Below, one piece after another: positions 14,473 through 15,702 of a DNA stretch of 15,702 nt. Below the pieces are notes generated by a model. The model ran no database searches. It saw only the letters and a program-made list of their open reading frames with translations, and had not been told where the DNA came from. A program made the position numbers and the translations under genes. Within the stretch, counting starts at the first letter, position 1. Each line of letters starts with the position of its first letter. The DNA comes from a virus. The DNA lies in the IMG/VR virus record IMGVR_UViG_3300010391_001881. The stretch is one strand, 5' to 3'.

Positions 14473-15090
14473 CTAAATTATATCTTTTGTTTCAATAATC
14501 TGGACTCCGAAGTTAGACATTTTATCTAGAGCTTCTAAAGCTTTTTCTGGAACAACTCCAGCACAAGCGTCTTTCACCATATAGACTTTACTAGAATATT
14601 TCAATGCGTCTATAGCAGTATTGAGAACACAAACATCTGTTGCAATTCCCACTATATAAATTGCAGGAGCTCTAGGAAAATAAATGAGTTTTTGTAACTT
14701 AGTTTCAGTCTTCTTGTCGTTCTCAAAGAAAGCAGAATAACTATCAATATTCGCGTGATAGCCTTTTCTTAAAATGAATTGAATTGGATTTTGATTTAGT
14801 GAAAGTCGCAACTCTGCCCCTTTAGTTCCTTTAATGCAGTGGTCTGGCCAGAGAACTTGATCGCCATATTCTACTGATATGGTTTCAAAAACAGCTTTAC
14901 CTTTATGTTGAGAAGCAAAAGAAATATGGTTTCTGGGATGCCAATCTTGAGTAGCAACAACTAAATTGAATTCTGAGTTGATTAAAATCTTGTTGATGTT
15001 GGGAATAATTTTGTCGCTCTCGGGAACAGCTAAGGATCCGCCAGAGCAGAAATCATTTTGAACATCTACAATAATGAGTACGCTGTCCAT
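14473..15090 (-). CDS. pncA: Nicotinamidase/pyrazinamidase PncA (isochorismatase family)
   Basis: LIIVDVQNDFCSGGSLAV (Asp), ATQDWHP..H, GIATDVCVLNTAIDA (catalytic Cys), DACAG; GAGGAAA SD upstream; TAG stop. Confidence 0.8.
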   Translation of the reverse strand: MDSVLIIVDVQNDFCSGGSLAVPESDKIIPNINKILINSEFNLVVATQDWHPRNHISFASQHKGKAVFETISVEYGDQVLWPDHCIKGTKGAELRLSLNQNPIQFILRKGYHANIDSYSAFFENDKKTETKLQKLIYFPRAPAIYIVGIATDVCVLNTAIDALKYSSKVYMVKDACAGVVPEKALEALDKMSNFGVQIIETKDII

Positions 15091-15099
15091 ATAATTTCC

Positions 15100-15702
15100 T
15101 CACATTGTAATCAGAGTTTTATCACCGAACGCATCTACTTCGATTTTTACATTTTTGCATTGAAATCCTGCTGCTTGTTTATGTCCACCACCTCCAAGGC
15201 TCTTTGCAATTTGACTTACATCAACACCTTCATTATCTGTGTAGAGAGAGACAGTGCAATATTCTCCTTTTACATTGACCCAAGCTAGCATAAAGTCATA
15301 TTTTTGTTTATCCCACACAGACTTGAATACTGAAGAGTTGAAACGAGTAGAGTTCAAACAGATTATTGAGTAATTTTTAAACTTAGCTGGAAACGAATAG
15401 AAAGAGATAGTTTTGTCGTCTTCAGCATTTTGATATTGAAGAATGATGCGACCCGCATCTCTAGTTTTTTTCTCAATAGAGAGCGCATCATACTGAGCAA
15501 AGTGATTTAAGCTGAATTTAAAATATTTGTCGAAATATTTTTCCCAGAACTTGAAATTAGTAGTTGGATCTGTATCGTTTAGCTTCATCCCCATTTGAGT
15601 AGGGAGAATTTCTTCATCCCAATATTTTTTGTCATGATTATCCCAAACGTCATATCTACCAAGCAAATGAACTAATCTTGGAAAAAATTTGTGGCTTTCA
15701 GT
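15100..15702 (-). CDS. DHH-family phosphoesterase, DHHA1 C-terminal domain (NrnA/GdpP/RecJ-like); partial, the N-terminus lies beyond the window end
   Basis: The GGGH motif context LGGGGHKQAAGF is typical of DHHA1. The annotated Met at 15666 lacks an SD and the frame stays open to the window edge. Confidence 0.6.
   Translation of the reverse strand, partial: TESHKFFPRLVHLLGRYDVWDNHDKKYWDEEILPTQMGMKLNDTDPTTNFKFWEKYFDKYFKFSLNHFAQYDALSIEKKTRDAGRIILQYQNAEDDKTISFYSFPAKFKNYSIICLNSTRFNSSVFKSVWDKQKYDFMLAWVNVKGEYCTVSLYTDNEGVDVSQIAKSLGGGGHKQAAGFQCKNVKIEVDAFGDKTLITM

Follow-up and report, generated by a model that had tools for sequence, protein, structure and literature searches.

Adjacent genes for a nicotinamidase and a predicted NrnA/NrnB-like phosphoesterase on a fragment of a large phage genome

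Phage NAD+ supply and viral DHH-DHHA1 proteins

Depletion of nicotinamide adenine dinucleotide (NAD+) is a major strategy by which bacteria resist phages, and new phage pathways for its reconstitution (NARP1-3) are being reported in quick succession. The published systems, NARP1, NARP1-AP, NARP2 and NARP3, contain neither PncA nor PncB (bioRxiv 10.1101/2024.02.11.579819; 10.64898/2026.01.28.702374; PMC13464706). Phage nicotinamidases are already known: one was noted in phage G (PMC12484599), and pncA is mentioned in work on NAD-jumbo phages, in which 174 of 668 gut jumbo phages carried complete salvage or Preiss-Handler routes (PMC11662467). By the comparison made here, PncB and NadE are the usual companions of phage PncA, and this Preiss-Handler route has been catalogued in jumbo phages; the literature searched contained no test of it in counter-defence and no experimental work on a phage nicotinamidase. 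Here we describe a nicotinamidase gene, pncA, and the adjacent gene for a predicted DHH-DHHA1 phosphoesterase in the IMG/VR virus record IMGVR_UViG_3300010391_001881. The whole stretch analysed, 15,702 bp and hereafter the window, is identical to an entire JGI contig of that length and is the only visible part of the phage genome besides 420 bp added by a Logan contig. Its 19 tRNAs, its homing-endonuclease-like genes and its relatives in IMG/VR indicate that it is part of a large phage genome.

DHH-DHHA1 proteins have likewise been described in viruses. Iyer et al. (2021, PMC7824862) proposed a speculative anti-signalling role for the DHH phosphodiesterases of jumbo phages, citing a Sulfolobus membrane DHH-DHHA1 nuclease that acts on cA4, and a literature search for a characterised phage DHH phosphodiesterase found no experimental work. 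Among cellular enzymes, a 2025 study of NrnB proteins (PMC12709177) describes them as 3'-5' exonucleases on RNA of 2-4 nt. According to the same study, NrnB proteins without a long C-terminal extension favour short substrates, and the extension marks long-RNA exonuclease activity in clade A.

At about an even chance, the two phage genes encode a pair of auxiliary enzymes, PncA serving Preiss-Handler NAD+ salvage and the DHH protein trimming short oligonucleotides, kept together by lineage synteny and with no obligate joint mechanism. What the present comparison adds is the full-length DHH protein, its separation from RecJ and GdpP, the outline of a DHH clade that is mostly viral, and counts that restrict the link between PncA and DHH to one lineage.

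The nicotinamidase, the DHH protein and their junction

All convincing genes of the window lie on its minus strand. The features that carry the argument are, in window coordinates:

15100..15702, minus strand: 3' part of the DHH-DHHA1 gene (residues 125-324 plus stop codon), in a frame open to the window edge, with Pfam and PHROG matches
15640..15654, minus strand: DHH motif IV, YDVWD, containing Asp142 (from a 32-member family alignment)
15181..15195, minus strand: DHHA1 signature GGGGH (Gly294-His298), with G295, G297 and H298 invariant in the 32-member alignment
15091..15099, minus strand: 9-nt spacer between the DHH gene and pncA (DHH stop codon at 15100-15102, PncA ATG at 15088-15090)
14473..15090, minus strand: pncA, a 205-aa nicotinamidase/pyrazinamidase (from Pfam, an NCBIfam equivalog, a match to 2wt9, and motifs)

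The PncA protein matches Pfam Isochorismatase (9e-25), exceeds the cut-off of the NCBIfam equivalog NF008623 ('bifunctional nicotinamidase/pyrazinamidase'; 200 bits against 174) over residues 2-203 of 205, and aligns over residues 2-204 with the Acinetobacter baumannii nicotinamidase 2wt9 (E=2e-58); further structure matches include the Pyrococcus, yeast and M. tuberculosis enzymes. Its catalytic triad, Asp9 (15064-15066), Lys109 (14764-14766) and Cys154 (14629-14631), aligns to identical motifs of 2wt9, and the cluster Asp49/His51/His55/His84 is present, with a QDWHP motif from 14947-14949. Asp/His clusters of this kind provide the metal ligands in PncA structures. Both the triad and the metal-site residues are invariant across eight phage PncAs. 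The first-pass annotation of this DNA, made from the letters alone, had called the gene pncA, and the family scores, the 2wt9 match and the Asp-Lys-Cys triad all agree with that call. In comparison with bacterial PncA (2wt9, NF008623), the phage protein falls in the same length class and keeps the IAT-D-V-C cis-peptide region together with the triad and the QDWHP site, but it is phage-encoded and has a phage-like G+C content.

The gene is, moreover, a resident of the phage genome. The DHH and pncA genes have a G+C content of 35-36%, equal to that of the surrounding phage genes (pncA itself has 35.8%, with 28.6% at third codon positions, GC3). A recent horizontal acquisition and an assembly chimera were both rejected, because the G+C and GC3 of pncA fit those of its neighbours and an independent Logan assembly is identical: contig L001 (SRR6159086_33861) matches window 10642-15702 at 100% identity over 5,061 bp, encodes the exact PncA protein, and continues 420 bp further. 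Searches for exact 42-mers in IMG/VR and in JGI metagenome contigs yielded no source contig. Phage-borne nicotinamidase is uncommon, with relatives of PncA in 11 of 50,697 GenBank phage records and in 157 IMG/VR stretches, and a megablast of window 13300-15702 against GenBank phages gave no match. An Rfam scan returned tRNAs only, with neither an NAD riboswitch nor a pnuC motif near pncA.

As a member of its family, PncA would be a cysteine amidohydrolase, dependent on Zn or Fe, with nicotinamide as its substrate and nicotinate and ammonia as its products. Nicotinamide is released by every NAD-cleaving enzyme, NADase defence effectors included, and nicotinate could then pass through PncB, a nicotinate mononucleotide (NaMN) adenylyltransferase and NadE, the steps of the Preiss-Handler route. 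These later enzymes would have to be supplied by the host or from elsewhere in the phage genome. We infer that salvage beginning with PncA would keep NAD+ available during infection.

The second gene runs past the window edge, as the first-pass annotation had recognised, and its first 124 codons were recovered on the identical contig L001, where the full-length protein of 324 aa is encoded at L001:49-1023. The fragment within the window (the last 200 aa) scores 30.9 bits against Pfam DHHA1 (cut-off 25.9) and matches PHROG 4771, 'DHH phosphoesterase', at 2.9e-15. The full-length protein scores 29.6 bits against DHHA1 (above 25.9) and 26.0 against DHH, slightly below the cut-off of 28.1, and matches no other Pfam domain. 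DHH motifs I-IV (His7/Asp10/Asp12, Asp57, Asp79-His80-His81 and Asp142) are invariant in 32 family members, as is the DHHA1 motif Gly295-Gly-Gly-His298, in which a Lys follows GGGH. The earlier assignment to DHH/DHHA1 is borne out by Pfam DHHA1, PHROG 4771 and this full set of motifs. Among database names, no NCBIfam model matched the protein, about a dozen homologues carry the JGI automatic name 'oligoribonuclease NrnB/cAMP/cGMP phosphodiesterase', and the cluster-member names of ten NCBI-derived homologues were uninformative.

In an AlphaFold2 model of the DHH protein (pLDDT 92.9, pTM 0.84), the N-terminal part is predicted to form an alpha/beta DHH lobe, about 95 residues make up a helical linker region, and the chain finishes with the DHHA1 lobe. 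When the model was compared with the PDB by Foldseek, the first match was an uncharacterised H. pylori DHH protein (6mtz), followed by the mycobacterial NrnA homologue 4ls9, archaeal RecJ/Cdc45-type proteins, Borrelia DhhP, TM1595 and the GdpP catalytic domain; PggH, a D. radiodurans RecJ-like protein, Rv2837c/CnpB and Pde2 were also among the matches. Sequence searches of the PDB, with the single protein and with a family profile, aligned about 30-70 residues around GGGH (best E 1e-6, with the profile), and sequence cannot assign the DHH subfamily because only this region aligns to solved structures.

Considered together, the architecture and the modelled fold predict a stand-alone NrnA/NrnB-like DHH-DHHA1 phosphoesterase. 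NanoRNases A and B have the same two-domain layout of DHH and DHHA1 in about 300-350 aa, and the catalytic motifs and the linker are also common to them and the phage protein. The phage protein has no long C-terminal extension, in which it resembles the short-RNA-preferring NrnB-B/C clades of the NrnB study (PMC12709177). It differs from cellular NrnA and NrnB in that its sequence likeness to them is limited to the surroundings of GGGH and its clade is mostly viral. The protein is neither RecJ nor GdpP, because it has neither an OB fold nor transmembrane, PAS or GGDEF parts. GdpP, Pde2, CnpB and the Sulfolobus membrane nuclease do have the catalytic core fold and motifs in common with it; a GdpP identity was nonetheless rejected, as no transmembrane helices, PAS or GGDEF precede the DHH domain, whose motif I begins at residue 7.

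The proteins that match the DHH model best overall are DHH phosphohydrolases encoded by jumbo phages and by giant viruses (Foldseek E 1e-17 to 1e-11, TM 0.5-0.68), namely those of Pseudomonas PaBG, Erwinia PhiEaH1, Ralstonia RP12, Bacillus AR9 ('NrnB'), Klosneuvirus and Marseillevirus. These are stand-alone DHH-DHHA1 proteins of similar size, with 12-21% identity to the phage protein, and the likeness adds no mechanism because none of them has a demonstrated function. The clade around the phage protein is large (3,173 clusters at 50% identity, E<=1e-30) and is found mostly on viral contigs. Relatives number at least 346 in IMG/VR and 4 in 50,697 GenBank phage records, all of the latter metagenomic; among 185,579 species-representative genomes there are about 15 full-length relatives, all in metagenome-assembled genomes.

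As a metal-dependent NrnA/NrnB-type phosphoesterase, the DHH enzyme probably converts RNA or DNA of 2-5 nt, or pNpN, to 5'-mononucleotides, a substrate range that we infer from the architecture, the NrnA/NrnB analogy and the gene neighbourhoods. Such a step would finish the breakdown of host nucleic acid after endonucleases have acted, and would feed the neighbouring thymidylate-synthase and reductase genes.

The junction between the two genes is tight. The 9-nt spacer and the GAGGA Shine-Dalgarno of pncA, which overlaps the DHH stop codon, imply co-transcription and possibly translational coupling. Downstream, 27 nt separate pncA from a ThyA-like gene, the stop codon of which overlaps a 63-aa open reading frame (ORF) by 4 nt, and 10 nt then lead to a gene resembling that of the major vault protein (MVP). 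No terminator-like site was seen on the minus strand between the DHH gene and the MVP-like gene, and the ThyA-like gene is probably in one transcription unit with pncA. The MVP-like gene closes the tightly packed string DHH-PncA-ThyA-orf63-MVP, beyond which a gene of the HNH type and a long array of tRNA genes follow. The downstream members of the string are:

13534..14445, minus strand: divergent ThyA-like gene, 303 aa (Pfam Thymidylat_synt 2e-10)
13346..13537, minus strand: 63-aa ORF without an assigned function, kept between the ThyA and MVP-like genes in relatives
10792..13335, minus strand: MVP-like gene, 847 aa (Pfam MVP_shoulder 4.5e-23, Vault_3, Band_7)

Gene neighbourhoods and competing explanations

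The first-pass annotation had treated the two genes as a module and their pairing as suggestive. Neighbourhoods were counted by tblastn at 80 IMG/VR loci encoding DHH relatives and 80 encoding PncA relatives, each extended by 10 kb on either side. None of the 80 DHH loci had PncA, PncB, NadE, a NadR-like protein, PnuC or NMNAT-Nudix within this distance, and none of the 80 PncA loci had a member of the DHH clade. A general PncA-DHH module is rejected on these counts (0/80 in each direction); co-localisation within the window's own lineage, described below, is the part of the suggestion that stands, with nothing like it beyond close relatives.

The regular partners of phage PncA are, judging from the same loci, other Preiss-Handler and salvage enzymes: PncB was found at 34 of them, a NadE-like protein at 33, an NMNAT/Nudix-like protein at 18 and a NadR-like protein at 5. 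The nearest PncA homologues (54-59% identity) are encoded on phage contigs, two of which, L089 and L090, are T4-like with rIIB and carry clusters around PncA that comprise NMNAT-Nudix, PnuC, a NadR-like protein, RNA ligase and PncB. These clusters extend over L089:4826-11988 and L090:1794-12567, the latter adding a glutamine-dependent NadE and a CYTH protein, and each has the whole Preiss-Handler route alongside its NARP3-like pair. PnuC and NadR flank PncA in L089, L090 and a third contig, L091. The earlier NAD-salvage reading of PncA thus gains support from comparison, both from the clusters of its relatives and from the frequencies of PncB and NadE-like proteins. With the described phage NAD+ supply systems, the window's PncA would have in common the logic of returning NAD breakdown products to NAD+. 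Its homologues adjoin PnuC-NadR (the NARP3 gene pair), NMNAT-Nudix, PncB and NadE, whereas within the 15.7-kb window PncA stands alone: a Pfam search of its ORFs revealed no PncB, NadE, Nampt, Adps/Namat or PnuC/NadR, tblastn with PnuC, NadR, NMNAT, PncB and NadE queries detected none of these there, nor was any of the pairs that define NARP1-3 (Adps+Namat, Nampt+Nmnat and PnuC+NadR) detected in it.

The neighbours of DHH relatives have a different composition. A Pfam scan of 149 proteins encoded near the 80 viral relatives gave a mixed set leaning to DNA and nucleotide metabolism, with ThyX, DnaB, ResIII/UvsW helicases, RecA, ligase, PolB and PD-(D/E)XK nucleases among the named families, and some portal and terminase proteins. 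ThyA or ThyX occurred within 10 kb at 6 of the 80 DHH loci (at 4 of them within 1 kb), as against 1 of the 80 PncA loci that served as controls.

The lineage of the window (DHH 46-60% identical) was represented by 12 contigs. PncA is encoded within 3 kb of DHH, in variable order, on six of the 12 (the window, L083, a 26-kb JGI contig, L082, L085 and L086), and some NAD-salvage gene lies near DHH on seven. The order on the 26-kb contig is ClpP-PncA-114aa-250aa-DHH-130aa-ThyA-ThyA-63aa-MVP. Five contigs (L002, L003, L084, L087 and L252) carry DHH without NAD genes in the available sequence, and the 278-kb contig L088 has the order Endonuclease_NS-PncA-250aa-ThyX with no DHH within 10 kb. In the lineage, ThyA is the best-conserved neighbour of DHH and directly adjoins it in L002 (72% identity); a DNA ligase adjoins DHH in L082 and L085. 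Besides Endonuclease_NS, ThyA/ThyX and the ATP-dependent ligase, the block holds ribonucleotide reductase, a protein of 232-250 aa and the MVP-like gene. We attribute the proximity of PncA and DHH to synteny within this lineage, in an accessory region that is rich in tRNAs and plastic.

Among the explanations that compete with a pair of independent auxiliary enzymes, one that is rather unlikely makes the DHH protein an eraser of defence signals. Without any part played by PncA, it would degrade second messengers that are cyclic di-, tri- or oligonucleotides, as used by CBASS, type III CRISPR (cyclic oligoadenylates) and Pycsar, or the linear molecules derived from them. It would fit the DHH-DHHA1 domains of GdpP, Rv2837c/CnpB and Pde2 among the fold matches, the mostly viral distribution of the clade (at least 346 IMG/VR matches against about 15 full-length ones in the species genomes), the occurrence of Tad2-like proteins, albeit as 2 of the 149 neighbours of viral relatives, and the proposal of Iyer et al. 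for jumbo phages (PMC7824862). Against it, replication and nucleotide-metabolism genes, rather than anti-defence islands, dominate the neighbourhoods, the protein matched no PADLOC or anti-defence family, and the literature searched offered no experimental case. The phage signal nucleases Acb1, Apyc1 and AcrIII-1, moreover, have folds other than DHH. Nothing was found in support of the signal-nucleotide degradation that the first-pass annotation had suggested for the DHH protein, and NrnB candidates are reported to be inactive on c-di-AMP in a section of the study that describes them (PMC12709177).

Several observations weigh against a purely syntenic pairing and argue for some functional tie between DHH and NAD metabolism in this lineage. 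The 9-nt junction, with its shared ribosome-binding-site region, is one; another is that PncA stays within 3 kb of DHH even where the gene order varies. In L083 the string PncA-DHH-PncB has stop and start codons that overlap by 4 nt, and in L251 a Macro gene directly precedes DHH, with PnuC-NadR 1 kb past DHH and ThyA further on. The tblastn neighbourhood screens detect relatives of the chosen queries only. Some residual chance of a functional coupling of DHH and PncA is left, for which the grounds are the two cases of immediate adjacency and the layout of L251.

Such a coupling could conceivably take the form of an NAD-centred module, in which the DHH enzyme processes an NAD-derived nucleotide alongside PncA (and, in relatives, PncB, PnuC-NadR or Macro), clearing NADase products and rebuilding NAD+. 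Candidate reactions would be hydrolysis of ADP-ribose (ADPR) or ADPR-phosphate, 2'/3'-dephosphorylation of NADP(H) or pAp-like molecules, and destruction of the ADPR-based signals of Thoeris. DHH enzymes such as NrnA have pAp 3'-phosphatase activity, which is also given in the PDB names of 5cet and 8iu7, and this chemistry favours the idea, as do the arrangements in L083 and L251 and the counts of six and seven in 12. A phage Macro phosphatase, furthermore, extends NARP1 (bioRxiv 10.64898/2026.01.28.702374). The counts of 0/80 in both directions speak against it, together with the occurrence of one gene without the other inside the lineage (L088, L002, L003 and L084) and the NARP1-3 papers, which mention no DHH component. 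The block also includes unrelated ligase, ThyA, Endonuclease_NS and MVP-like genes, and synteny alone therefore accounts for the proximity of DHH and PncA. On balance, such a module is unlikely. Its specific version, in which DHH is a new step of a Preiss-Handler-type phage NAD+ reconstitution with PncA and PncB (as in L083) or with Macro and PnuC-NadR (as in L251), we regard as quite improbable.

Finally, a RecJ/Cdc45-like exonuclease acting on single-stranded DNA in phage recombination, repair or replication is very doubtful: the fold matches include archaeal RecJ, RecJ2 and RecJ-Cdc45 as well as the cores of bacterial RecJ, and RecA, UvsW-like helicases, ligase (adjoining DHH in L082 and L085) and PD-(D/E)XK nucleases lie near relatives, but the alignments with the matched RecJ chains of 385-756 residues are limited to the common DHH-DHHA1 core, and the phage chain of 324 aa ends 26 residues past GGGH without the OB fold that the first-pass annotation had associated with a RecJ-like enzyme and without the other domains that follow or accompany DHHA1 in bacterial and archaeal RecJ.

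Other genes of the window and what the pairing would mean

The ThyA-like protein scores 111 bits against TIGR03283 (archaeal-type), below the cut-off of 174.6. Instead of being a plain thymidylate synthase, the enzyme might hydroxymethylate pyrimidines or modify bases. Two tandem ThyA-like paralogues occur on the 26-kb related contig. The MVP-like protein of 847 aa combines MVP_shoulder (4.5e-23), Vault_3 (3.6e-7) and Band_7/SPFH (2.7e-4) matches with a long coiled-coil C-terminus; in relatives, conserved versions of 893 aa and 874 aa are likewise encoded behind ThyA-orf63. It has no PHROG match, and PADLOC matched neither it nor DHH, PncA or the conserved 232-aa neighbour. Between a NADase domain of bacterial immunity and the vault protein TEP1 a link has been drawn in a 2026 preprint; no direct connection was found here.

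The conserved protein of 232-250 aa lies immediately upstream of DHH and/or downstream of PncA in relatives (L082:3485-4183, L085:900-1601, L086:9279-9992, L088:10653-11405 and L003:8624-9298) and has no Pfam or PADLOC match. In the phage described here, its gene could sit just outside the window.

Further along the window, a 140-aa Macro-domain protein is encoded at 7471-7893 on the minus strand (Pfam Macro 25.3 bits, cut-off 22; PADLOC DarG macrodomain 2.8e-12). Homologues with 65-66% identity occur in L002 and in L251, where the protein encoded directly before DHH is 65% identical to that of the window. The Macro protein could strip ADP-ribose off DNA and so oppose DarT, or it could have ADPR-1''P as its substrate, as the phage Adpp phosphatase does. 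A gene at 7160-7483 (minus strand) for a 107-aa Cpn10/GroES-like co-chaperonin (Pfam 4e-13) overlaps the end of the Macro gene by 13 nt; Cpn10 also occurs three times among the neighbours of DHH relatives.

Between the MVP-like gene and the tRNA array lies a spacer of 409 bp (window 10383-10791) with 49.9% G+C, against about 35% around it. Logan contig L001 terminates within this spacer, at window position 10642, and an ORF at 10426-10650 (minus strand), itself without a Pfam match, includes LLRHSSYGTTMNIYRH, which resembles a tyrosine-recombinase C-terminal motif. Next to the spacer, window 9813-10382 (minus strand) encodes a 189-aa HNH/endonuclease VII-like protein (PHROG 1035 at 5e-6, PHROG 28061 at 7e-9), the N-terminal half of which consists of about five tandem 14-residue 'QTPE[F/Y]KA(K/R)' repeats.

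The array of 19 tRNAs includes one with the anticodon CUA (amber suppressor; labelled 'Pyl' by ARAGORN) at window 6206-6278 on the minus strand. A CUA suppressor tRNA is also present in the related contigs L002 (15239-15311) and L003 (13222-13293), the latter of which has a tmRNA, and small RF-1-domain proteins are encoded by related contigs. TAG terminates 3 of the 24 ORFs of the window, and its long genes have no in-frame TAG, so that any recoding would have to act on other (late?) genes. Interspersed among the tRNA genes, window 289-9397 holds ORFs of 60-200 aa without a family match, some of which overlap tRNA ends (2198-2788 with tRNA-Lys 2757-2832, and 4514-5050 with tRNA-Glu 4992-5065), and several of the small ORFs may therefore not be real genes.

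If the DHH enzyme is simply a nanoRNase, the region would be an ordinary block of nucleotide scavenging and cofactor salvage. If it instead belongs to the improbable NAD+ reconstitution considered above, the lineage would have a 'fourth' counter-defence route, based on the Preiss-Handler pathway, with DHH acting on ADPR, ADPR-phosphate, a cyclic ADPR signal or NADP. The occurrence of a DHH clade beside NAD genes in one lineage offers a concrete biochemical hypothesis that can be assayed cheaply.

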